A stretch of DNA of 64,000 nucleotides from a virus. The translations under genes and the position numbers were made by a program. Location: positions 1 to 64,000 of the IMG/VR virus record IMGVR_UViG_3300026382_000012; one strand, given 5' to 3'. This document shows, one piece after another, positions 5,686-52,397 of this stretch; the first letter of the stretch is position 1; each line of letters begins with the position of its first letter. The notes under the pieces are model-generated. The model searched no databases. It saw only the letters and a program-made list of their open reading frames with translations, and was not told the origin of the DNA.

Positions 5686-5702
5686 AACTACTTTAAAGGA
5701 GG
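5686..5702 (+). repeat. First copy of dispersed element AACTACTTTAAAGGAGG. Other copies start at 8321, 9735, 10578, 11830, 14004, 14973, 15519, 17145, 21152, 22092, 22675 (degenerate), 23394, 24133, 24844, 25737 (half), 39124, 39907, 41158, 42309, 43331, 55808 and 57453
   Basis: Read directly; full copies are fused to the SD a few nt before a start codon. Confidence 0.93.
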
Positions 5703-24843: not shown

Positions 24844-24865
24844 TACTACCTTAAAGGAGGCCAGA

Positions 24866-25738
24866 ATGATCAAACTAGATAGAGAAATAGTTTTTAGAAA
24901 ACTTAAAGAACTTCCTACACTTTCTAAAGTTGAAATAGGTTGGGGGTTATGTTCTAAACAACCAGATATAACAATTAATGGTAAACTATATGAAATTCCT
25001 CGGGATTTACATAAAGAACTTTATTCATCTGAATCGCCAATTAGTATAGGTAATGGAAGATATTTACTATCCTATAAAAAATGTTTAAAGATTCGAAAAT
25101 TTGTTATAGTAGATAAAAAATTAAGCAACTGGAAATATATAGGTGAGTTATCACATATATCTTCATGGGGGCGTGATATAAATGATGAAGTATTTGACTG
25201 TCATATTCAACATTTATTTCTATTTCTAAATTTGGAAAGAAGACACGGTGATGTACTTCTAATTGATAACAATATTCTTGTTATAAACGATTGTGCGAAA
25301 TTTCGTATATTTTATCCAGAAATAGTAAATCTGAAAGATTTACTTTATAATAAATTTCCGCCACCTCCAAATGATGGTAAATTAGTATTTAAGGAAATTA
25401 CTATTCAACCCCCTAAAAAACTTTTAAACAAATGGATACAACAAGTATGTAATACACATGGTATAATGCCAGAAAATTGGAAGAAATATGGTAGAATAGT
25501 TAGAAAAGTACAAAGAAAAGCAGAATTATATGCTGCATGGAAATTATTAAGAAAAGGTAAACAAGTATATCTTCCTAGTCATATAGTTTATTACGATGAT
25601 GAAGCTAATTTGCATACATATTGTTTAGTAGGAACTCCAGCTATAAGAGGAGTATTTATTGCTGAAAAAGAAGATTATATTTTCGATATCTTCTCTACGA
25701 AAGAACCTGTTTATAAAATAAAAACTTCAGTGCTCTAA
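24866..25738 (+). CDS. Hypothetical protein
   Basis: 290-aa ORF after element/SD. Confidence 0.7.
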   Translation: MIKLDREIVFRKLKELPTLSKVEIGWGLCSKQPDITINGKLYEIPRDLHKELYSSESPISIGNGRYLLSYKKCLKIRKFVIVDKKLSNWKYIGELSHISSWGRDINDEVFDCHIQHLFLFLNLERRHGDVLLIDNNILVINDCAKFRIFYPEIVNLKDLLYNKFPPPPNDGKLVFKEITIQPPKKLLNKWIQQVCNTHGIMPENWKKYGRIVRKVQRKAELYAAWKLLRKGKQVYLPSHIVYYDDEANLHTYCLVGTPAIRGVFIAEKEDYIFDIFSTKEPVYKIKTSVL

Positions 25739-25868
25739 CTACTTTATGCTCCTCCATTCCTACTTAAACTTATTAAAAATTAAGTAGGAATTTTGGAGCA
25801 CGGAGATTCATAAAGAACCTCATTACTACCCACTATCCCTTTAGATAGGGATTCGTGGGATACCTTTA
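25728..25868 (-). ncRNA. Predicted TnpB omegaRNA of element 1 (scaffold plus flank-derived guide)
   Basis: Nested hairpins TATCCCAC..TCCCT/AGGGA..GTGGGTA and GTGCTCC..ATTCCTACTTAA/TTAAGTAGGAAT..GGAGCAT, shared with the other two elements. Confidence 0.65.
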
Positions 25869-27240
25869 AAAGTAGGTTATATAATGAACTCTGAATATCA
25901 GACATAAATATTCTTATAGGTCTCGCTAACTTATCCAGCCAAATATTAAAAGGCAAACAATTAACTATATCCTTTCTGACTTTCTTAATGATGTTCAAAG
26001 CGCCGTTGCAATCGGCATTCCAGATTTTATTAAGTTTTAAATCTTTGAAAAGACCTCTTTTTATTCTCTTGCCGTTATAAGATTCTTTCTTTGATGGTTG
26101 TTCAGTTAAAGCTGAACATTTAGATGTATAAGATTCATCTACTTCCACAACTTTAATACCGAATTTCTCACATTTGTATTTTAATTGCTCAATTAACATT
26201 CTAAAAGGCAAATAAACAAAATTTTGATTTGTTCTATCACCCAAATTAATTTCTTGTTTACTTTCAATTGCAGATTTACCTATTATAACATGCTTAATAC
26301 CAAATAATAGAAATAAGGTAACTAATTTGGATGTAATTTGATGGAACATACTTTTAATTCTTCTTGCTCTATAACGTTCTAATTTACGCCTCAATATTTT
26401 ATTTTCTCTTGATTGTAACTCAGCTTTGATTTTATTATACCATTGATTAAACGACTTAAACTCTTTACCATTAATTATTAATGACTTAAATTCTGGATGA
26501 TTGGAAACAATAGTCATGAGATTATCTAGTCCTAAATCTATACCAGCTACATATTTATCGTTCTTTATATTAGATAATTTAGGAATGTGTATTTTATATA
26601 CTACCTGTATGTAATAGTCGTCTAATTTCTTAACAACTCTCACAGAAGTGATTTTTTCCTCAAAATATTTAGGTAATTTGATTTTAATATTGGATTTTTT
26701 TGAATTTAATTTTAGTTGTATTACTCTACCTTTAGCTGATTCTATAATTTTAAATACTAAACTGCTAAATTCAATAGAGCAATTATTGACTCTTTCTATT
26801 TTCTTTGGTATTGGTGGTTTTGGCGGTGATTTAAATTTTGTTGGGTCTTTCTTATATTCATGAATAGCGGCGAAATATGATTTATAATTATTTGCTATTT
26901 CTTTGATTAATGCTTGAAATAAAGCATTGCCTAAATATTCTTTAATATTCTTTAGTTGTATATACAATTGTTTGTTTATACTGTCTGTTAATAATTCAGT
27001 TTCATATTGTTTCTTGAGTGAGATTTTCTTACTATAATCGCCACGGTTATAAATTTTACCAGTAAATAGTAAATTAAGATTTTGCAATGTTATACCTATT
27101 TTGACAAAAAATTTAAAATTTCTATTGATTAATAAATAAAACATATTCTTTGCATGGACATATGTCTTACATAACTTCATAACTTTCTTCTTTCTATCAC
27201 CTCGAATTCTGATTTCCAGAATATGGTTGATTGTCTTCAC
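25780..27240 (-). CDS. tnpB: TnpB RNA-guided nuclease (IS607 type)
   Basis: GIDLG, LKYK, VDESYTS, NADCNGALNI. Confidence 0.92.
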   Translation of the reverse strand: MKTINHILEIRIRGDRKKKVMKLCKTYVHAKNMFYLLINRNFKFFVKIGITLQNLNLLFTGKIYNRGDYSKKISLKKQYETELLTDSINKQLYIQLKNIKEYLGNALFQALIKEIANNYKSYFAAIHEYKKDPTKFKSPPKPPIPKKIERVNNCSIEFSSLVFKIIESAKGRVIQLKLNSKKSNIKIKLPKYFEEKITSVRVVKKLDDYYIQVVYKIHIPKLSNIKNDKYVAGIDLGLDNLMTIVSNHPEFKSLIINGKEFKSFNQWYNKIKAELQSRENKILRRKLERYRARRIKSMFHQITSKLVTLFLLFGIKHVIIGKSAIESKQEINLGDRTNQNFVYLPFRMLIEQLKYKCEKFGIKVVEVDESYTSKCSALTEQPSKKESYNGKRIKRGLFKDLKLNKIWNADCNGALNIIKKVRKDIVNCLPFNIWLDKLARPIRIFMSDIQSSLYNLLLKVSHESLSKGIVGSNEVLYESPCSKIPT

Positions 27241-27843
27241 CTAATAACTCCTTTGCTTTCTGCTCTAATTCAGAAATTTTTTATAACTTCGCGCACCATA
27301 TAATTTCATAGCGTAATAATGAATAAGATGAACTAATTCTTCAATTATATCTTTTGTAGTATCATCATGATTATCAATCTGTGATATGACTATAAGTTCT
27401 ACATCATGTAATTCACATAGTCTTTGTACTAGATCAAATCCAATTCTCGTAAGTCTATCTTTCGAAGCTATTATAACTTTATCTACAAGTTCATAACTTA
27501 TTAGTTTAATTAATTCGGAAAATCCCTTTCTATTAAAATTAACAGATGAACCTACATCTGTTATAATTTTGATTTTTCTAATGGTATTCCTAATTTATGA
27601 CAAAATTGTTCGCAAAATTGAACCTGATTTTCTAAATGTTTTCTGTGACTTAGTCGAAACTCTAGCATATATAATTGTATGTTTAGTTTGTAATTTGCCA
27701 AGCTGGTATAACTTACGAAGATGTTGTTCTGTATACCTTCTATGACCGCCTGGAGTGCGTTATGGCTGTAATAAATCATCGTATTTTCGCAATGTAGATA
27801 TACTTAAACCTGTTAACTTACTAAATTCCTCCAAAGTATACAT
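27230..27843 (-). pseudogene. tnpA: IS607 TnpA serine recombinase pseudogene
   Basis: MYTLEEFSKLTGLSISTLRKY...QP*RTPGGHRRY with in-frame TAA at 27762-27760; YARVST, then at least two frameshifts; later DRLTRIGFD. Confidence 0.88.
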
Positions 27844-27956
27844 GATTCCTACTCCTTATTAATTTTTATAGTAGATTTTACTATCTTCTAATAGATTATT
27901 CACTATTTTTTTGTCTATTAATAGTACTGTTTTGTACTACATATAAGCAAAAATAA

Positions 27957-27995
27957 AAATACCTGGGGCGTATAAAAATACAACCCCAGGTATTT
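27957..27995. terminator. Probable bidirectional terminator between convergent blocks
   Basis: AAATACCTGGGG...CCCCAGGTATTT inverted repeat. Confidence 0.75.
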
Positions 27996-28004
27996 ATTAA
28001 TTTA

Positions 28005-28790
28005 TTAGCTACCTATCGGCGATACATTATCGGTAACATTAAGCAGATTAGCTATAAGATCATCAGCGCCAATTGAAGATTTATTATCAGACGCAAATTT
28101 ATTAAGGAAATCTGCAGCTAATTGTTTTAAATCAGGTTTATAATCATCTGTTAATGGATATCCATCAAATCTATATGTATATGTCATTACAACTTCAGAT
28201 TGACCTGCAAGGTCATCATCTAGTGCATTTGATTGATCGTCTTGCGGTACTATACCTGGATACGCCCAAACATTTTCTATATGTTTAGGTGTAAATGTAG
28301 AAAATGCATTACCAGTTGTATATCTATTCATCGCGCCGATAGGCTTTGTTTTAATTACTATCATATTTCCTTTATATTCTTTAGGAGTAAATTCATTTAG
28401 TGCAGACATGCCTGTATATGGATCAAATAACATATTAATCCATTTACTATGAATTCTCCATATTGGAGAATCTTGGTAATCATAATATGTTACAGAGATA
28501 TCTCTGGAAAATGTAGAACCTGCGGCGTAAGAATGTTGTACGCCGCCCATAGCATTAAGATCAATCAAATTAAGTGTTTTCGAATGCGGTGTAAAATTAG
28601 TAGCTGTAGCTGAAATCCATTTTCTAGCAAATTCTCTTTCCTGATCATTAAAAATACCATCAGGAAGATCTATAATAACAAAGAAATATCCTTTTATTTT
28701 TGGATGTATTGCAGATTTACCTATATTAGCTCTTGTAATTACATCTGGACTATTAGTACCAATTACATTAATAAGTTCATCATATGCCAT
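28005..28790 (-). CDS. Tail tube protein (gp19-like)
   Basis: Follows sheath; ISVTYYD..IWRIHSKW..YKG..YPGIVP..YTYRFD pattern. Confidence 0.72.
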   Translation of the reverse strand: MAYDELINVIGTNSPDVITRANIGKSAIHPKIKGYFFVIIDLPDGIFNDQEREFARKWISATATNFTPHSKTLNLIDLNAMGGVQHSYAAGSTFSRDISVTYYDYQDSPIWRIHSKWINMLFDPYTGMSALNEFTPKEYKGNMIVIKTKPIGAMNRYTTGNAFSTFTPKHIENVWAYPGIVPQDDQSNALDDDLAGQSEVVMTYTYRFDGYPLTDDYKPDLKQLAADFLNKFASDNKSSIGADDLIANLLNVTDNVSPIGS

Positions 28791-28866: not shown

Positions 28867-30783
28867 TTATCTAACCTTTAAGGATACAACGATAAATTCA
28901 ATAGCTCTAATGAATTTAACATCAAGATCAATATATAATGTACTACTTGTATCATCAAATCTTACATTTAATTTATATTCTTTAATTGCTTCTTTTGTGA
29001 ATAACGGGCCGCCTTCTAACCATTGTTTGAGATAATTATTAACTCTTCTATATGCTTCTTTAATTACATTAGTAGTAGCTTTTCTTTGTAGTAGATCTTT
29101 AAGTATTTTTGGTATCTCTTTTCTAAATGTATGTATAACTTTTACAACATGCGCGCGCTGTAATATAGAAAGTCTCTTATAAGTAGTGAATTGTGTTGGT
29201 ATATAAGTACCATCAGGTTCTTTAATAGTTGGGTTGATCTGCCTATTGGTTAATTCATTAGCTTGGGCAAATATAGGAGAATAACTTAACTCAATAGGAT
29301 CCTGAATAAATGCTTTAAACATAGCAACGGGTTCAGCAATACCTTGAGTATTATCTACATTTAGATGACATTCAAGAGCATGATATGTGGGCGGGAACCA
29401 AACAGTTTTACCTGTATAAGGATCAGTCATTTTTCTATATTGGGAATATAACATAACATTGTATGTGGCATATGGTACATCATTTAATCTAGATTCAATA
29501 TCTTGAGTATATTTAGTATTAAACGGCATAGAAATTAAACCTAATACATCCTCTCTTACATCACAGAATTCTCTCATTGCAGCCTTAACTGTGAGAGGAT
29601 ATCCTGGATCTACTACATAATCGATTGGATAATATTGATATTGTGTATCTAGTAATTTAACACAATCTTCAGAATAAGTACCATTGAATACAGATGTTAA
29701 TAATTTATTTGCGACGCTCCAATCCAATTTACCAAATGAATCAAATAGAGATCCATCGGAACCGTTTTCGAAGTTAATCTGATCAGAGAAAGATTCTACT
29801 ACTAATTTTCTTGCATAAAGAGCTTCTACATCATTAGCACCGGCGCCATATAGAGATTTAACTTTATCTTCATTTGCAATTACTCTGATAAATTCAGAAT
29901 CTTCATTTATTCTAGTAACAATGTATAATTCTCTACCTGTAGTAGGATGTCTTACTGTATTGCCTGCAATTTTGTTTACTAAAGATGCAGTAATGGGGCC
30001 TTCTAATAATTTAACAGAACCATCTTCTTGTTCTTCATAAACATATATATCAACAAACATATATGGGAATAATGGATCACCTTTCTCATCTACATACATT
30101 TGTTCTAAAGTTGTATTTCTTACAAAAGATATTTTGATTTTGTTATAGAATTCGCCGCGACCAATTGGATAGAAAGTAAATACAGAATCATTAAATCCAG
30201 GATCACCTTTTAGTTCTTCTACTGAATTGGCATTAGATACAGAATCTAAAGTAACAACAGGTACTTTATGTACAATCGCGCCTGTATTAACACTTACAGG
30301 CTTATCTAATGTAATAGTATTACTAGAAGTATCAATATTAACAACAGTATATACATTGTTAATATCTTTATTAAAGAATATCTTATCATTTATAGAAATT
30401 TTAGATACATCATCTAATTCAATATCAGTAGCATCTGTATAATTGTTCTGTACTACAGGATTGGGCGAATAATCATTAATATTAACAGAAATTCTTTTAT
30501 TAGCTAATGTTGCATCATCAGGCAATACTCTAATGAGATATACCTTATTAGTATATAGAGATGCTTTTAATGCAAAATGCAAACCAAATCCATATTTCTC
30601 AGGATCTGGTTTTCCATAAACTCTTTCAATTTGAGTAGGAGAACTCATTAATTCTATTGTTTTATCCGGGCCTTTTGGAGATAAAATTGGTATGAATACT
30701 ACTCTATCGCCCGAGAAATTTGGTTCTACATAAGATACATCTTGAACATAGAATTGTATTTGGGGCATAGTTGTTAAAGACAT
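28867..30783 (-). CDS. Contractile tail sheath protein (gp18-like)
   Basis: KGP...YGKPD...YLIRV, DPYTGKTVWFPP, QINP, RAIEFI; SD favours start at 30783. Confidence 0.9.
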   Translation of the reverse strand: MSLTTMPQIQFYVQDVSYVEPNFSGDRVVFIPILSPKGPDKTIELMSSPTQIERVYGKPDPEKYGFGLHFALKASLYTNKVYLIRVLPDDATLANKRISVNINDYSPNPVVQNNYTDATDIELDDVSKISINDKIFFNKDINNVYTVVNIDTSSNTITLDKPVSVNTGAIVHKVPVVTLDSVSNANSVEELKGDPGFNDSVFTFYPIGRGEFYNKIKISFVRNTTLEQMYVDEKGDPLFPYMFVDIYVYEEQEDGSVKLLEGPITASLVNKIAGNTVRHPTTGRELYIVTRINEDSEFIRVIANEDKVKSLYGAGANDVEALYARKLVVESFSDQINFENGSDGSLFDSFGKLDWSVANKLLTSVFNGTYSEDCVKLLDTQYQYYPIDYVVDPGYPLTVKAAMREFCDVREDVLGLISMPFNTKYTQDIESRLNDVPYATYNVMLYSQYRKMTDPYTGKTVWFPPTYHALECHLNVDNTQGIAEPVAMFKAFIQDPIELSYSPIFAQANELTNRQINPTIKEPDGTYIPTQFTTYKRLSILQRAHVVKVIHTFRKEIPKILKDLLQRKATTNVIKEAYRRVNNYLKQWLEGGPLFTKEAIKEYKLNVRFDDTSSTLYIDLDVKFIRAIEFIVVSLKVR

Positions 30784-30841
30784 GTCTAACTTCTCCTTCT
30801 TATACACAAAAAGATCAAAAAATAAGAATGGAAATTATTCT

Positions 30842-39927: not shown

Positions 39928-40416
39928 ATGTTAGTTTATGCAACAATTAATAAAAAATATTCCACGTTTATAGAATCTAGAAAAATGAAAAAATTTATAG
40001 ACAAAATTATTGATTTATTCAATAACAATGTATGCATTAACCTTACTGCATACGGATTTATAGACATCGAAATTTACAGAATATTAACTAGAGATAAAGA
40101 TAAAGAGAAGTTATTAATATTGGATATTGAGTTAAAACATATATTTAGTTTCATTTTAGAAATGACTAATACTCAAGAAAATTGGAATAAGCTATTTAAG
40201 CTGACTAAAAATCCTACCAAGATAGTTAAATACGAATACATCTATAAAAGATTATCTAAAGAATCTCAATTTATTTATTTTGATTCAGAATTGTTGAAAT
40301 TATTTGATCGCCCTATACCATTATTCAACTTAGAAATATTAGAATTATTCGATCGCGCAGTTTCATTAAATGAAATAAAACAAAACATAAATAAAGCGAG
40401 AAAAACATGTACGTAG
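39928..40416 (+). CDS. Hypothetical protein
   Basis: ORF after element; ends INKARKTCT. Confidence 0.6.
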   Translation: MLVYATINKKYSTFIESRKMKKFIDKIIDLFNNNVCINLTAYGFIDIEIYRILTRDKDKEKLLILDIELKHIFSFILEMTNTQENWNKLFKLTKNPTKIVKYEYIYKRLSKESQFIYFDSELLKLFDRPIPLFNLEILELFDRAVSLNEIKQNINKARKTCT

Positions 40417-41159
40417 TAAAGACAAGAAACGATACTTATATTTTAGAAACTAAAAAAGAATTATTATCATTTCTAAAAAAGAACATAAGTAGATTTGAAT
40501 ATATTACAATTGAATATTTATTCGGCATTATGCTAGAAATACTTAATAACACCATAAATTCAGAAGTAATTGATATTTTGTTAAAAATGAGTGAATATAG
40601 CGCAGTAAATAATATTGCATTATATCGTAATAATGAATTGGCTATCAATAATTTAGTTTTTGAAAAATGGAGTATTGATAGTCTCCGCAAGCTTCTTAAA
40701 TATCTTAAACTCGATTACTATGATCCAAAAAAGATTTTTCAACTTGATTGGAAATTTATATTTAGAGATTTGAAAGATCTACTTAATTTCTTAGAGGATT
40801 CATATCTATGTGTTTCAAATACTAATAATAATCATTACATAATCGATCTAAGAAAACATATATCTGAAGATAGTATAATTAGTGTAAATAGTGATACATT
40901 CAAAATTCAAGAAATTGTCTATGGTGAAAAATGGAAAATTATACTCGATGAATTTGGTACGGAGTATTTTTATATAATCGGCGGGCGCGATGATTTTCTA
41001 AACAAAATATCAACACTCCTATGTTCTATACAAAAATTTAATCTAGATATAGTTAAAAAACATATTATTAAATATCTAGCAAAGCAACAAAAAAATACAT
41101 TTACAATTGATATTCTTGATGAGCTTAGTAACTATATTAATATTGTTATGAAATTCTAA
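40407..41159 (+). CDS. Hypothetical protein (C-terminal motif family)
   Basis: Ends LSNYINIVMKF. Confidence 0.7.
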   Translation: MYVVKTRNDTYILETKKELLSFLKKNISRFEYITIEYLFGIMLEILNNTINSEVIDILLKMSEYSAVNNIALYRNNELAINNLVFEKWSIDSLRKLLKYLKLDYYDPKKIFQLDWKFIFRDLKDLLNFLEDSYLCVSNTNNNHYIIDLRKHISEDSIISVNSDTFKIQEIVYGEKWKIILDEFGTEYFYIIGGRDDFLNKISTLLCSIQKFNLDIVKKHIIKYLAKQQKNTFTIDILDELSNYINIVMKF

Positions 41160-41181
41160 CTACTTTAAAGGGGGCGTAAAA

Positions 41182-45377: not shown

Positions 45378-45877
45378 AGGAAATTTATTATGTGGAAAGA
45401 AGTAATAACGGCCGGCGTAATTTTGGATAAAAAATTGCAAAAATTTAAAGAACTACATAATAAACTATCCTACATAACAAAGTACGATATTGATGAATTA
45501 TATATATGCACTAAAAATTGTTCATTTATAGTTTCTAAATTTAAAAATTATTATTTTAGATTATTTATTCTTGACTCGGAAAATTTTGATTATGCAACAT
45601 TAGAACATTTATGGGATACTACAATGCATATTATCAGAAATAAGTTTAGAAATATAAAAAATGTGTACTATATCAATTTTAAGTATACAATAAATAATGT
45701 AGATATCGAAATTATGACTAAAAGAAATCACAATATAATTTACTTAAACAACATACATAACAAACATAGTAGTTTACATTTTATCTGTGATAAAAATGAT
45801 GAAATAATAAACCTCTTGTTTGCTAGTTTTTATAAATCTATCTAACGAAATTTAATTAATGCTAAGGAGGATTTATC

Positions 45878-46522
45878 ATGTCTAATAAATACTACACAAC
45901 TAAGGAATTTATGCAAATTACCAAAATACCGAAATCTACTCTTTATAAGTATATAAAAGAAGGTAAAATAACACCTTATAAATTACCAAATAAACAATAT
46001 AGATTTACAGATGAACACATAGAACAAATATTAAATATACATAAAAATATAGCTGATAATCATATGAAACTTAATATTATTTATGCGAGAGTTTCAAGTC
46101 AAACGCAGAAAAAATATATACAAAATCAAATTAAGTACTGCAAAGAATTTTGTATAAAGAACGGAATAATTATTAATGATATTATATACGATATTTCATC
46201 CTCATTTAATTTTAATCGGCCCGGATTATTAAAAATCTTAAAATTATTAAAAGAAAATAAAATCAATAATTTAATAGTATACAGTAAAGATCGTTTAACA
46301 AGATTAGCTTTTGATTTGTTTGATAATCTATTCAAAATATATAATGCGAATATAATTGTAATTGACAATTCAGATATTCCTATAGATGAATTAGATAGAA
46401 AAGATTTAATTGACGAGTTAGTATCATTTATTCATTATATAACTTCTAAAATATATGGAAAACGAAAATATACTAAAAGCAAATTGAAGGAGATAATCAA
46501 TGAAGAAATTAAGAAGAGTTAA
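45878..46522 (+). CDS. tnpA: IS607 TnpA serine recombinase
   Basis: N-terminal MerR-like HTH, YARVSS, DRLTR, KIYGKR. Confidence 0.93.
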   Translation: MSNKYYTTKEFMQITKIPKSTLYKYIKEGKITPYKLPNKQYRFTDEHIEQILNIHKNIADNHMKLNIIYARVSSQTQKKYIQNQIKYCKEFCIKNGIIINDIIYDISSSFNFNRPGLLKILKLLKENKINNLIVYSKDRLTRLAFDLFDNLFKIYNANIIVIDNSDIPIDELDRKDLIDELVSFIHYITSKIYGKRKYTKSKLKEIINEEIKKS

Positions 46523-47816
46523 GCAAATTTTTAAAACAAAGAAATCGCTATATCATAAAGTTGAAAAAATTATGTGTTCATTTAACATAATTAAAAATGA
46601 AATGTATAATCTTGTTAATTATTATTATGATAAAACAGGTGATATTAAACCTTTTATAACTGGTAGAAATTTATATTACATAATTACTGGAAATAAAACA
46701 CTACCATATCATGATCAAAACATACAACAAATATTAAACAATATACGAAATGCACAAATAATAAATCAAAAAGTAAAAACTGATATTATTAATATTGCAT
46801 GTGAAATAATTAGGCGCGAATTGAAATCTGTCGTAGGTAAATGGAAGAAAGGTCAAAAGGCTTCCTTGCCAAAACAAAAGAATTTTAATGATTTATTTAC
46901 GTATTCATTAGAAATACCAAAACGAATGATTAAGGATTTAAGAAAAAGAAAGAGAAAACCTGAAAATGCAATATTAATTACTATTCAAAAAGGCATTTAT
47001 ATTAAACTTAAAATTGATAAAAAATTTCCAAATATTAATTGCATAACAATTATCTGGAAAAGAGATATTGGTGTATACTTTAATATTATTTATGAAATAA
47101 ATCAAGAAGATATTGCATTAAATAAAGATAATTGGATATCAATTGATTTAGGAATTAATAACTTCGCATCAATAGTTTCAAATCATATAGATTCTATTAT
47201 TATCTCAGGCAAAAATTTGAAATCTTTTAATCAATGGTATAACAAATTATATGCTAAATTACAAACAAAAGGTAATGATAAATTGAGAAGAATATTAACT
47301 GATTATCGTAAACGAAGAATTAAGATGTTTTATCATAATACTGCAAATAAGATTATAGATATCTGTTTGGATAATAATATAGGTAAAATTATAATAGGCA
47401 ATCCAACTACATTGTTTCAGAAAAAATCTAAATATTCTAAGAAATCAAACCAAAATATTAGAATGGTAAATTTAGGAAAATTTATTAATATTTTAAGATA
47501 TAAATGCGAACAATTTGGTATAGAATTTCATATTGTATCTGAAAATTATACATCTGTTTTGTCATCAATTACCGAAAATATCACAACATTTACATATGAA
47601 TATCTAAAATCGATATATAGCAAACTCAAGAAAAATCGTATTAAAAGAGGTCTTTTTAAAGACCATAAAATTAATAAAGTTTTTAATGCAGATTTAAATG
47701 GCGCATTAAATATAGCTAAACAAATAATAACAAATTTACATAAATTAATTCAAGAACAATTAGATATATACATTGATAAAATTTCTAGGGCAAATAAATT
47801 AGTAATATATTTTTAA
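46500..47816 (+). CDS. tnpB: TnpB RNA-guided nuclease (IS607 type)
   Basis: SIDLG, LRYK, SENYTS, NADLNGALNI. Confidence 0.92.
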   Translation: MKKLRRVKQIFKTKKSLYHKVEKIMCSFNIIKNEMYNLVNYYYDKTGDIKPFITGRNLYYIITGNKTLPYHDQNIQQILNNIRNAQIINQKVKTDIINIACEIIRRELKSVVGKWKKGQKASLPKQKNFNDLFTYSLEIPKRMIKDLRKRKRKPENAILITIQKGIYIKLKIDKKFPNINCITIIWKRDIGVYFNIIYEINQEDIALNKDNWISIDLGINNFASIVSNHIDSIIISGKNLKSFNQWYNKLYAKLQTKGNDKLRRILTDYRKRRIKMFYHNTANKIIDICLDNNIGKIIIGNPTTLFQKKSKYSKKSNQNIRMVNLGKFINILRYKCEQFGIEFHIVSENYTSVLSSITENITTFTYEYLKSIYSKLKKNRIKRGLFKDHKINKVFNADLNGALNIAKQIITNLHKLIQEQLDIYIDKISRANKLVIYF

Positions 47817-47940
47817 CAAGTATTCCGTGAGTCCTTTAATAGGATAGCGGATAGTAATGCCTAGTATTGGTTAATTATAACCAATACTAGAGACACCTAG
47901 TTAGGAATTAAAGAACTAGGTACACTTATTGTTAATCACA
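47817..47940 (+). ncRNA. Predicted omegaRNA of element 2
   Basis: TATTCCGT..TCCT/AGGA..GCGGATA covaries with element 1; further hairpins CTAGTATTGGTTA/TAACCAATACTAG and ACCTAGTT/AACTAGGT. Confidence 0.6.
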
Positions 47941-48263: not shown

Positions 48264-48902
48264 ATGTTAAAGGAAGTAATCGCGGGCGATTTTATACTAG
48301 ACGAAATAAATAAAAAAGAACTACAAAATCTAGAATTTAAGATAACACAAATTACAGCAATATACGACATAAACAAATATCATATCAAATCTAACGACTG
48401 TAAATTTATTATTACAAAAATTGATTTAAATAGTATTAGACTATTTGTTCAGTCTGATGCTGACTATAAAATGATAAATCGGTTATGGAATACAACTGCT
48501 GGAATTATTAAAAAGTATTTTTGGGATATCTGCAATGTAGAAAGTCTCAAGATAGAGTATTTATTAAATGGTGCGCGTATTGAACTTTCATTTAAAAGTA
48601 AACTTAAACTTACAATAGATAATGTATACGAGAAATGCGCTGAGCCTCAAATTGTATGTAATAATGATGATGAATCAAAACAAATATGCAAAAAACTCCT
48701 TGATAAATTTCCACAAATCAATTTTATTATACAATCAGACAATGATGTATTTTACTTTTATTGGAAAAACGCCGGGTGGTTTTACATAGATAGAACTAGT
48801 TTATGCAATAATATAAGTGCTATATATTATAGCATGTTATCTGATATGCGCGCAGAAATTGTAGAAGAGGTAATAAACTATGCTTCAATCCTGCTATTAT
48901 AG
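48264..48902 (+). CDS. Hypothetical protein (C-terminal motif family)
   Basis: Paralog of 45390 (KEVI, RLF, LWxTT); ends VINYASILLL. Confidence 0.72.
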   Translation: MLKEVIAGDFILDEINKKELQNLEFKITQITAIYDINKYHIKSNDCKFIITKIDLNSIRLFVQSDADYKMINRLWNTTAGIIKKYFWDICNVESLKIEYLLNGARIELSFKSKLKLTIDNVYEKCAEPQIVCNNDDESKQICKKLLDKFPQINFIIQSDNDVFYFYWKNAGWFYIDRTSLCNNISAIYYSMLSDMRAEIVEEVINYASILLL

Positions 48903-48981
48903 TACTTATCAAAACCCACATATTGTCGCTAAGTATATAAATTTAAGATCAGATCCTACTACTTTTGTCAGCCATAATAAT

Positions 48982-49110
48982 ATGATCAAAATACCATCCA
49001 TCCTCCTAATCTCCTACTCAATAATAATCTAACATAATACTTTGAGTAGGATTTCGGAGGACAAAGTAACTACCGTCCCAGGCCCTATATCAGGTTCCTG
49101 GTTGCTTTTA
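48982..49110 (-). ncRNA. Predicted omegaRNA of element 3
   Basis: GTCCTCC..TCCTACTCAA/TTGAGTAGGA..GGAGGAT stem, homologous to element 1. Confidence 0.6.
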
Positions 49111-50485
49111 ATTCATTAACAATAAGTGAAATATTAGATTGTGTTAAAGTTGTTATATTAAACTTAATTGGATTTGCTAATTTAATTAATTTTAGTTTAT
49201 CAGAAAAATTTTTAAATGCGTTTTTATAAACGCATCTGATTATGTTAAATGCACCATTAATATCAGCATTCCATATTTTATTGATTTTAGGATCGAAATA
49301 AGAACCTCTGCCGTATTTACGATATATATGTTTTTCATATATTTTATTAGTAATTGCAGATTTAGCACTAGTGTAATACTCTTCAACTATAGTTACTTTA
49401 ATACCATATTTTTCACCTTTATATTTCAATTGATTTATTAAAACCGAAAATGGTATTGAATAAAAATTCTGGTTATTTCTACTGCCAAGATTAATATTTT
49501 GTTTAGCAGAAGGCAAATCACCTATTATTATTTCATTTATTCCGTATTGTTTACATATTTGAATAATTTTATTTGTAATCTGATGAAATACACTCTTAAT
49601 TCTTCTATTTCTATATGCAAATAATTTGCGATACATATAAATTAAGTCTTTCTTTTTATCTTTATCAGTTTCCAAATCTATTTTACTTCGTAATTTGGCT
49701 AAATGTTTATTTGCCCACTGATTGAAAGATTTAATTTCATTACCGGAAATTATAAAACTTTTTAAATTAGGATTATTACTTATTGCAGAAATCAAATTAC
49801 TAATACCTAAATCTATACCTAATTTGTAATTTCCAGTAACATTTTCAAATTCTGATAAATCAACTTCATAATAAATATCCAAATAAATATCAGTTAAAGA
49901 CATTCTAATACCAAATGTTTTTATATTATTTGGATCTATATACTTTAGTTTACTAAATTTGATATTAAAATGTAGATTTTTATCTTTTGTAGGTTTAATC
50001 AAATAAGTATTATCATCAATAAGTTTGAATTGCCTATGACAAAGTATATAATTTACATTGATTATTTTATCAAGCTTTTTAGGACGAGGTATACCAGGTT
50101 TATTTTCTATTTTACCATTTTTATACTTTTTAAGCAATGCAAAATAACTTTTATATTCTTTATCTACTTGTTTATTGGTAGCTTGGAAAAAATCACTGCC
50201 ATTATGTTTGTAAATATTTTGGATATTATTTATAATATTTATTAGTGATGAATCTAATTGAATTAACTGATCGATTAACTCTTTATCTCTACAATTTGCA
50301 ATCTTATCTCGTTGTTTTAAATCGAGATATTTAGATGTTAATTCAAAATATTTATTTATAAGTATGTAAAGTAAGTTTTTAAGATGTTGAAATCTTAATA
50401 AAGAAGAGCGGGCGATCTTTTTCTTATCACCCCGCAATCTAACAGATAAAACATACTTAACTTTCTTTTTCTTCAATTCCGACAT
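49085..50485 (-). CDS. tnpB: TnpB RNA-guided nuclease (IS607 type)
   Basis: GIDLG, LKYK, EEYYTS, NADINGAFNI. Confidence 0.92.
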   Translation of the reverse strand: MSELKKKKVKYVLSVRLRGDKKKIARSSLLRFQHLKNLLYILINKYFELTSKYLDLKQRDKIANCRDKELIDQLIQLDSSLINIINNIQNIYKHNGSDFFQATNKQVDKEYKSYFALLKKYKNGKIENKPGIPRPKKLDKIINVNYILCHRQFKLIDDNTYLIKPTKDKNLHFNIKFSKLKYIDPNNIKTFGIRMSLTDIYLDIYYEVDLSEFENVTGNYKLGIDLGISNLISAISNNPNLKSFIISGNEIKSFNQWANKHLAKLRSKIDLETDKDKKKDLIYMYRKLFAYRNRRIKSVFHQITNKIIQICKQYGINEIIIGDLPSAKQNINLGSRNNQNFYSIPFSVLINQLKYKGEKYGIKVTIVEEYYTSAKSAITNKIYEKHIYRKYGRGSYFDPKINKIWNADINGAFNIIRCVYKNAFKNFSDKLKLIKLANPIKFNITTLTQSNISLIVNELKATRNLI

Positions 50486-51095
50486 CTTTTAATACCTCAT
50501 CTTTTAATTTTTTAATTTTTCTATAATTTCGTGTACCGTAAATCTTCATAGCATAAAGATGTATTATACGTACTAATTCTTCTACAATATCTTGTACTCT
50601 GTCATATTTAATACTATCTTGATTTATAACTACCAATTCAATACCTAATATATCAAATAATGTTTTAAATAAATCAAAACCAATTCTAGCTAATCTGTCT
50701 TTATCAGCAATAACAATTCTTTTCGGTTTATAAATATAACATGTTTTTAGTAATTCTTTTAATCCTTTTCTATTAAAATTAACAGATGAACCAATATCTT
50801 TAATTATTTTAGATATTTGCCAACCATTAGCAATGCAATATTTTTCACAATATTCAATTTGATTTTCTAGATTATTCTTTTGTTTAGTTGTTGAAACTCT
50901 ACAATAAATAATTGTATCGTAATTTTCTGATATATCTTTCTTTATTTTACCTAATTTATATAGTGTTTTTAAATGTTCATCTGTATATCTTCTTTTGCCA
51001 CCAGGCGTACGCAATGGATTAAGAATATTATCATAACGACGCAAAGTTGAAATGCTTAGACCAGTTAATTTAGAAAATTCTTTTATATTATACAT
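50457..51095 (-). CDS. tnpA: IS607 TnpA serine recombinase
   Basis: HTH, RTPGGKRRY, YCRVST, DRLAR, KIYGTR. Confidence 0.93.
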   Translation of the reverse strand: MYNIKEFSKLTGLSISTLRRYDNILNPLRTPGGKRRYTDEHLKTLYKLGKIKKDISENYDTIIYCRVSTTKQKNNLENQIEYCEKYCIANGWQISKIIKDIGSSVNFNRKGLKELLKTCYIYKPKRIVIADKDRLARIGFDLFKTLFDILGIELVVINQDSIKYDRVQDIVEELVRIIHLYAMKIYGTRNYRKIKKLKDEVLKDVGIEEKES

Positions 51096-51689
51096 TTATT
51101 ACCTCCTATTTCACTATTCAAAATACTACTCATTATTATATCGTAATATAGATTATATAACTAATGAGTAGATTTAACACAATAAATACCATTATGAAAA
51201 TTCATTGCCGCTATTTATTGATCTATTAAATTTGCGCAGGGGTTTTGAGTATCAAACATTTGTAAATAACCTAGAAATACTTATAACTTATAAAATAAAC
51301 TTTAACGATATGGTTTTATATCTAGATGAAATTAATACATCAATTGATATTAATGGATCAACTCCGCGCAATATATTTTCGAATCTAGATTTTGAAAAGA
51401 TAAAAATAAGTAAAAATATAACTTGGATTAGATACAACAATACAAACGAAAATATTGATAAAGATTTGATAATGAAGATACTAAATGCTATTAGAACATT
51501 AAGTAAATCTACTGTTTTTTACATACTAACATTTAATAACATGTTACTATTCAATGAAGATGCTCTCGATTATTATGAGATAAAAGAACATATTAATACG
51601 CCTAATTTTCTTAACTACATAGCAAGTAATATAAATGACATCCAGATATTTGATGAAGATTTAGTTAACTTTCTAAACGTGAAGAGGCT

Positions 51690-52397
51690 ATGATGCATAT
51701 TGAATCAATAAGCTTGGATAATGCAGATAAACTATTACTAATTGCCGAAAGTAAGAAATATCTACTTTCAGCAGAGATAATAGAAAAATTAAAAAAGATA
51801 CGCAGAAAAATACATATTGATCTAAACATAATTGATAGAGATAAAAATAGTTCATATATGTATATTGAAAATAACAAAGAACTAATGGTTGTATATATGT
51901 TTAACGAAAATATCAAAGAAGAGTTATTTAACGAATTTGTGAATAAGAAACTTGATTTCGCTCTATTATTATTTGATGAGGATGATAAATATTCTGACTT
52001 TTTTAAATTTATTAGTTCTATTAAGAATTATGTTAGAATTATTGATTTTATTGATTCTTATTCTGATGGGTATAATGTTAATATTTATTTTGATAAATAT
52101 ATTCCTGTTGTGCTGTCTTCTAATAATTTAGAAAAATTTAGATTTTATCGAACCGCTCGCGGATTTTACTTTATAAAAGAACACCTTTCCGAATATGAAG
52201 AACTAGAAGAAATTTTTAAATCATTTAAATATACATATATCGTAATCGATAAAATAATTACGATATATGATAGAAATAACTTTATCATGTCCATAAATAT
52301 CTTATCTGAAGATTTTTACGAAGTCAAATGCCTATTATATAATGATATGCTTGACCCTTCGGAAGTCGAAAATTATGTAAGGTTCGAAAATGTCTAG
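51690..52397 (+). CDS. Hypothetical protein, module gene A copy 1 (C-terminal motif family)
   Basis: Distant paralog of 54401 and 56018; ends VENYVRFENV. Confidence 0.7.
   Translation: MMHIESISLDNADKLLLIAESKKYLLSAEIIEKLKKIRRKIHIDLNIIDRDKNSSYMYIENNKELMVVYMFNENIKEELFNEFVNKKLDFALLLFDEDDKYSDFFKFISSIKNYVRIIDFIDSYSDGYNVNIYFDKYIPVVLSSNNLEKFRFYRTARGFYFIKEHLSEYEELEEIFKSFKYTYIVIDKIITIYDRNNFIMSINILSEDFYEVKCLLYNDMLDPSEVENYVRFENV

Follow-up and report, generated by a model that had tools for sequence, protein, structure and literature searches.

The DNA analysed here comprises bases 1-64000 (the window) of an 85,766-bp virus record of IMG/VR with a GC content of 26%, and the runs that contain it are hydrothermal-vent metagenomes, with no RNA run listed among them. 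At about positions 25745-27945 its minus strand carries an IS607-type insertion element, here called E1. We consider E1 to be, probably, a selfish homing module consisting of a TnpB protein (TnpB1) and its omegaRNA, in which the transposase gene tnpA has been lost while TnpB persists. The guide portion of this RNA appears to start inside a copy of a sequence motif that recurs at gene starts throughout the phage genome, and this overlap is most likely a side effect of the landing site rather than a new gene switch. The anatomy of the element, the lesions in tnpA, their recurrence in a second sample and the occupation of the same junction in a diverged relative are direct observations, and the start of the guide is set by analogy; the TA core, the target-adjacent motif and a homing activity of TnpB1 and its omegaRNA are deductions. 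The parts of E1 and of its right junction are the following.

25725..25744, minus strand: predicted 20-nt guide and native target AAGTAGTTAGAGCACTGAAG, its boundary deduced from three related families.
25737..25746, plus strand: motif copy AACTACTTTA adjoining E1, overlapping the TAA of the open reading frame (ORF) 24866-25738 and followed by neither a Shine-Dalgarno (SD) sequence nor a gene.
25745..25746, minus strand: TA, the presumed recombination core and putative final two nucleotides of the right end and omegaRNA scaffold.
25747..25869, minus strand: predicted omegaRNA scaffold, 5' end undefined, overlapping the final 30 codons of tnpB.
25780..27240, minus strand: tnpB, an intact open frame of 486 aa with a GTG start.
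27271..27843, minus strand: tnpA pseudogene with MerR helix-turn-helix (HTH) and resolvase domains, recognised by its lesions, domain matches and identity to a paralogue.
27844..27945, minus strand: left end, with several TAGT-containing repeats visible in the sequence (TGTAGTAC, CAGTACTA, ATAGTGAA, GATAGTAA, CTACTATA).

TnpB1 matches the Pfam domain OrfB_IS605 and a Cas12f1-like TNB domain. It is full length, the RuvC triad D235, E369 and D410 is invariant across six homologues, and the E and D motifs align with those of the solved Cas12f/TnpB-like chains 8j3r and 7wju. The CxxC...CxxC zinc-finger cysteines of the TNB domain are absent from TnpB1 (~370-410), and equally from the TnpBs of E2 and E3, two further IS607-type elements of this genome (36% and 40% identical to TnpB1, respectively), and from the homologues P0002-P0004 (72-61% identity), and their lack is a trait of the whole TnpB clade. 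The remains of tnpA lie on the same strand directly upstream of tnpB; fragments of them match PF00376 (MerR) and PF00239 (Resolvase), and the wreck shares 54% identity with E3's TnpA, which is intact.

The tnpA gene is disrupted by a stop codon (TAA after LLQP at 27760-27762) and, by comparison with a relative, by three frameshifting deletions in T-runs, of which those near 27276 and 27572 remove 1 nt each and that near 27638 removes 2 nt. The original prediction, based on this DNA alone, had described a nonsense codon and at least two frameshifts beside a tnpB with an intact catalytic D/E/D, which agrees with what we find. It had also named assembly errors in tnpA and an empty site in close relatives as grounds for doubt, and the related contigs dispel the first and, for one relative, the second. 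The contigs of runs X1 and X2 carry identical lesions, and those of X2, which comes from a sample and study code different from those of the window, are identical to it over 25925-27856. Run X3, from a 2025 study, holds a relative diverged by 1-2% (0.6-2.6% of positions, approximately, in its individual pieces), in which E1 occupies the same right junction (contig 25648-25772). The tnpA of X3 is free of all three frameshifts, with one additional T behind each of 27276 and 27572 and two additional Ts behind 27638; insertion of these Ts yields a single continuous transposase frame, the TAA excepted, and in this form tnpA overlaps the start of tnpB. Since the lesions are shared by a second sample and the frameshifts are absent in X3, the decay of tnpA is both real and recent, its loss in the lineage of the window having followed the split from X3. 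Between the two, tnpB diverges by ~1.1%, like the flanking phage genes, and the insertion of E1 is therefore older than this split. The states of tnpA before and after its loss are preserved in two vent populations.

The disabling lesions are confined to tnpA (603 nt, 4/4 lesions), and tnpB with its 1461 nt has none, for which the chance is about 0.007 by length and 0.016-0.037 by counts of T/A-runs. This asymmetry fits selection for tnpB or against tnpA. That the whole element is instead decaying junk in which tnpB has not yet been hit is unlikely, even though the lineage split is shallow (about 1%) and 3/4 of the lesions are slippages in T-runs, as it has to contend not only with the placement of 4/4 lesions in the shorter gene (P 0.007-0.04) but also with a substitution in X3/X4 at 25806, which changes a G.U pair in hairpin 2 of the omegaRNA to G-C and so strengthens the structure.

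The predicted omegaRNA consists, in this order, of a nested stem 1 (CCCAC..ATCCC..GGGAT..GTGGG), UAGUAAUG, hairpin 2 (GAGGUUC..GAAUCUC) and a long hairpin 3 (GUGCUCC..GGAGCAU). Its fold has a z value of -7.6, and it matches no Rfam family. Stem 1 is common to TnpB loci of other metagenomes and metagenome-assembled genomes (MAGs) and covaries across six elements, with compensatory changes at 7/11 pairs. A pseudoknot between the 5' region of the omegaRNA and AAAGUAGUU was considered and given up, as E3 gave no support for it.

Stem 1 and its tail (GGGATAGTGGGTAGTAATGAG, window 25815-25860) are identical to the P9 hairpin and the 3' end of a group I intron at 2610-2655 of locus L085, an intron that carries an HNH gene and lies within the lysin gene of an unrelated phage. 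The match of L085 to Intron_gpI is itself weak and below threshold (E = 0.0076, 21.4 bits vs a gathering score of 50). The identity may be due to chance or may be a trace of the IStron connection of IS607 guide RNAs with group I introns. For E1 itself an identity as IStron was rejected: Rfam finds 0 group I introns in the window, and the left ends measure only ~100 nt.

The point at which the scaffold passes into the guide was set from related TnpB families that have copies at several sites. Identity between L009 and L011 ends at ...TTTTGARGCACCT, beyond which the two are unrelated, identity between L013 and L014 ends at ...TTTTGAGATAC, and that among L096, L099 and L007 (and L097) at ...CCGTTCCT; in all three families the break lies 0-1 nt past the closing stem of the last long hairpin. 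The last such stem of E1 is GUGCUCC...GGAGCAU and therefore its scaffold should end at GGAGCA(TA), which would place the boundary between ...GGAGCA(TA) and AAGTAGTTAGAGCAC and let the right end close with ...GGAGCATA. The right junction reads ...GTGCTCT AACTACTTTA followed by TGCTCCTCC... on the plus strand, with AACTACTTTA at 25737-25746, and ...GGAGGAGCA TA AAGTAGTT AGAGCAC on the element strand, so that with this boundary the guide would begin within a copy of AACTACTTTAAAGGAGG. The original prediction had likewise placed the junction beside a half copy of the motif and the start of the guide within it; the sequence is as it described, and the analogy with the three families bears out its boundary.

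TA is found also at the left junction (GCT-TA-TA-TG, 27942-27945), and in L096 and L097 it follows ...CCGTTCC and begins the left ends, which suggests TA as the core dinucleotide. Because a second TA is present at the left junction, its position is ambiguous by 2 nt, and the target-adjacent motif (TAM) of E1 would be CTTA (27944-27947, element strand) or TATA. The predicted guide, AAGUAGUUAGAGCAC..., finds its only 20/20 match in the genome at the native target; it runs antisense to the end of ORF 24866-25738 (last codons and stop), and it opens with 8 nt that are AACTACTT in antisense.

But how unusual is the sequence on which this guide begins? AACTACTTTA has 16 exact copies in the 85.8-kb record, all of them on the plus strand, and with one mismatch it has 45 matches in the 64-kb window vs 15.6 expected, a number that 0/100 shuffles reach. 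Nearly all copies have the form AACTACTTTAAAGGAGG-N5-8-ATG, often over an upstream stop codon, an arrangement that precedes many plus-strand genes and no minus-strand gene. Plus-strand examples of AACTACTTTAAAGGAGG, often over an upstream TAA, lie at 5686, 8321, 11830, 14004, 21152, 24133, 39124, 55808 and 57453. The part of the motif upstream of AAAGGAGG reaches past the Shine-Dalgarno core, and the motif may be read by something else, for instance by a regulator of translation or a processing enzyme, or may serve as a signal for coupling. A single remnant copy is found behind the final gene of a plus-strand block, and a search for the motif in IMG/VR returned ten unrelated single matches.

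With TA taken as the core, the motif and the guide proper have 8 nt (AAGTAGTT) in common instead of 10. The element strand holds 27 other copies of AAGTAGTT, 18/27 of them at gene starts; CCTTTA precedes it at 12 sites and CTTA at 2. The contiguous match to the guide is 8-9 nt at these sites, except for 11 nt at 41165.

41155..41167, plus strand: the best of the secondary matches, with TTTA and 11 guide nt (AAGTAGTTAGA); it lies at the junction behind ORF 40407-41159.

The original prediction had been bolder here, with a seed of 8-10 nt at about 20 gene starts, CCTT(T)A before each and a 13-nt match at 41158. The overlap itself and the TAM-like sequence beside motif copies are real; the extent is to be corrected to the counts just given, and the 13 nt resolve into TA plus 11 guide nt. 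The flank TCTAACTACTTTA, its overlap with a stop codon included, is identical at E1 and at the true gene junction 41155-41167, and these bases are therefore phage DNA and not part of the transposon end. An 8-mer of such frequency is ordinary in a genome of this GC content, where 12% of positions carry one as common. The longer words are not: TAAAGTAGTT shares first place in frequency among the 10-mers and TTTAAAGTAGTT among the 12-mers, and only 0.04% of positions carry k-mers as common as these. Neither E2 nor E3 shows an overlap between guide and motif.

One explanation for the overlap would be directed insertion, in which the E1 transposase prefers the motif for its CTT-TA-AAG centre and for a GTAGT resembling its own binding sites, the copies are hot spots and the guide match has no function. 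The core TA is indeed central in the palindromic CTTTAAAG, and GTAGT recurs in the ends of E1. However, the similarity between left-end and right-end regions is no higher than in shuffles for any of E1, E2 and E3, and the studied IS607 transposase needs only a dinucleotide and a short upstream preference. We regard directed insertion as improbable.

Could the seed matches instead serve in regulation? The premise that short seeds permit binding without cutting, on which the original prediction had relied, is present in the literature: about 8 TAM-proximal matches suffice for it (10.64898/2026.01.09.698545; 10.1101/2023.11.30.569447). According to published work, Dra2 TnpB stays bound when mismatched past position ~8 and needs 12-16 bp to cut, and the TldRs, nuclease-dead repressors that resemble TnpB (10.1101/2023.11.30.569447), have a seed of ~6 nt, some of them using guides of 9-11 nt. 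Given these seed data, binding without cutting at the 14 sites of E1's guide that have TTTA or CTTA is physically plausible if TTTA is tolerated as TAM, and incidental seed binding at these gene starts is possible. An incipient or domesticated RNA-guided regulator would go much further, in that TnpB1-omegaRNA, made by read-through of the late tail operon, would bind the 14 TTTA/CTTA seed sites and damp the plus-strand genes. In keeping with it, TTTA+AAGTAGTT ties for the most frequent 12-mer (12 copies) and two more sites have the exact CTTA, E1 is co-oriented with the late genes, a dead tnpA stands beside an intact tnpB (P about 0.007-0.04), and the binding properties of Dra2 TnpB and the TldRs would allow it. 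Nevertheless, RuvC is intact in TnpB1 whereas TldRs are nuclease-dead, and the decay is recent, the tnpA of X3 still being free of the three frameshifts. Moreover, the TAM lies downstream along transcription at every motif copy and the polymerase therefore meets the TAM-distal end first; in assays of TldRs a block of elongation required the TAM-proximal end to face the polymerase, so that the orientation found here is the one that fails. The motifs are intercistronic and not obviously promoters, past position 8 the guide matches its unique flank and not the better conserved SD, E2 and E3 lack any such overlap, and E1 sits in a harmless spacer between convergent gene blocks. We therefore hold such a regulator to be quite improbable, and very improbable in its specific form, namely that a nuclease-competent, transposase-free TnpB, co-transcribed with the late genes of the tail, uses 8-11 guide nt at 14 sites to modulate non-structural genes of the plus strand. 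If true, E1 would show the earliest stage in the domestication of a TnpB into a TldR; functional seed matches would amount to an RNA-guided transcription factor arising by an accident of insertion site, which the evidence here does not favour. Thus the global regulator of early genes proposed in the original prediction gained no support and has recent decay, an intact nuclease and a wrong target orientation against it; its second idea, a weapon against related phages, survives as RNA-guided homing against an element-free allele, and its null, by which E1 landed in a common motif by chance, keeps its plausibility when the constraints on the site are taken into account.

Hardly any credence is due to a mis-set boundary, by which AAAGTAGTT would be the terminal transposase-binding subsite of the element and the guide would start at AGAGCAC, unrelated to the motif, for although TAGT-containing repeats occur at both ends, related left ends begin TAGTTAA and AACCUACUUUUA (upstream of stem 1) can possibly pair with UAAAGUAGUU in the centroid fold, the three related families end 0-1 nt past the last hairpin, the flank TCTAACTACTTTA is identical to the bona fide phage junction 41155-41167, and the stop codon of ORF 24866-25738 lies inside TCTAACTACTTTA.

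The selfish homing module, which we favour, would have come about as follows. E1, a member of the IS607 family, would have integrated into the phage genome in the small gap that separates the last plus-strand gene from a terminator shared by the block of tail genes, recombining at a TA within a remnant of the gene-junction motif. Later, in the lineage of the window, the serine transposase gene would have been destroyed, and the TnpB nuclease and omegaRNA would have been retained because of their selfish action: in co-infecting relatives the ribonucleoprotein (RNP) would recognise and cut the allele that lacks the element (TAM CTTA or TATA plus AAGTAGTTAGAGCAC...), and recombinational repair would then copy the element into the cut allele. 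Loss of tnpA would in addition take away the risk of excision. Homing and gene drive by TnpB are established (10.1101/2023.11.20.567912; PMC10055086; PMC11870625). Where E1 landed suffices to explain why the seed matches 27 other sites; transient binding without cutting may result at the 14 TTTA/CTTA sites, and a selected regulatory role would not be needed. E1 lies in the ~23-nt spacer between the last plus-strand gene and a terminator hairpin, and this spacer is among the few spots where a 2.2-kb insertion does no harm.

Several points weigh against a homing module. No element-free junction was seen in four runs, in which no contig spanned E1, and with no element-free allele at hand both homing and the exact ends are things that we infer. 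Production of the omegaRNA is a prediction, and so is nuclease activity in a TnpB clade that lacks the CxxC cysteines. Finally, the start of the guide on the genome's top 10-mer would be expected of a random intergenic hit in an estimated ~0.2-1% of cases; given the 23-nt spacer, a seed on a motif remnant becomes a matter of several percent, about 5-10% by our estimate.

In the layout of the genome, a minus-strand block of structural genes is met by convergent plus-strand blocks whose genes are mostly unknown, and E1 is placed at such a point of convergence, next to the following features.

27960..27992: inverted repeat ACCTGGGG...CCCCAGGT with T-runs flanking it on both strands.
28005-28790: tail tube gene, adjoining the E1 region.
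28867-30807: tail sheath gene, adjoining the E1 region.

Judged by its sequence, the hairpin at 27960..27992 probably terminates transcription in both directions, that of the plus-strand block as well as that of the tail tube/tail sheath block; owing to its long loop it was not picked up by a simple terminator scan. On the other side of E1, the X3 relative lacks 803 bp (24845-25647), that is, most of ORF 24866-25738, and retains the final ~100 nt beside the right end of the element. The window contains 0 tRNA genes and 0 Rfam families at gathering score. E2 (plus strand, 45780-47925) and E3 (minus strand, 48950-51190), whose ends are approximate, both have an intact tnpA (MerR-resolvase) and tnpB. 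They sit within an array of paralogous unknown genes, where E2 appears to interrupt a paralogue of ORF 48264-48902; ORF 51205-51693, which follows E3, has neither a start nor an SD.

For TnpB1 and for the gene of its tail-tube neighbour no relative was found in the phage collection or IMG/VR. A scan of JGI metagenomes with TnpB1 as query gave homologues that are all <=43% identical, and in a scan of genomes the nearest homologues came from Aquificota MAGs (33-40% identity). TnpB1 is also encoded on a contig of 129,858 bp. The genomic homologues (L096-L107) lie almost all in Aquificota MAGs, a hint at the host lineage, and two of them (L096 and L099) are transposase-less copies within one MAG, with a left end of only ~50 nt.

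How does E1 compare with systems that are already known? It is like the TldRs in that a TnpB-derived RNP, borne by a phage and not accompanied by a transposase, could bind through a short TAM-proximal match near gene starts. It is unlike them in its intact RuvC triad, its full-length protein, the use of an ordinary flank as guide, intercistronic targets in an orientation ineffective for blocking elongation, and the lack of a conserved locus across diverged genomes. CboIStron of Clostridium botulinum is the best studied IS607-family element of the type TnpA(S)/TnpB/omegaRNA (10.1101/2023.11.20.567912), and E1 shares with it the order of a MerR-HTH serine recombinase followed by TnpB, an omegaRNA that spans the right end, a guide that is the flanking DNA and, if TA is indeed its core, a dinucleotide repeated at left flank and right end. 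In the studied element the core dinucleotide is common to both sides (TG[GG] as left flank, TC[GG] as right end), which differ at position -3, and TnpB therefore spares the occupied site; the presumed TAM and right end of E1 would likewise differ at -3, the left flank GCT[TA] vs the right end GCA[TA] mirroring the arrangement in CboIStron. Different from CboIStron, E1 has no group I intron by Rfam, probably TA and not GG as core, a pseudogenised tnpA, a longer TnpB (486 aa) without zinc-finger cysteines, and a phage as host replicon. A further parallel is with transposase-less TnpB homing or gene-drive elements (PMC10055086; PMC11870625). As compared with these, homing by E1 is something that we infer and an empty allele has not been found; in E1 as in these elements, TnpB and omegaRNA are kept without a working transposase on a multicopy, recombining replicon, and the guide matches the element-free allele. 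As such, E1 would be a natural example of an element whose transposase was lost and whose RNA-guided nuclease was kept, on a phage where homing pays.

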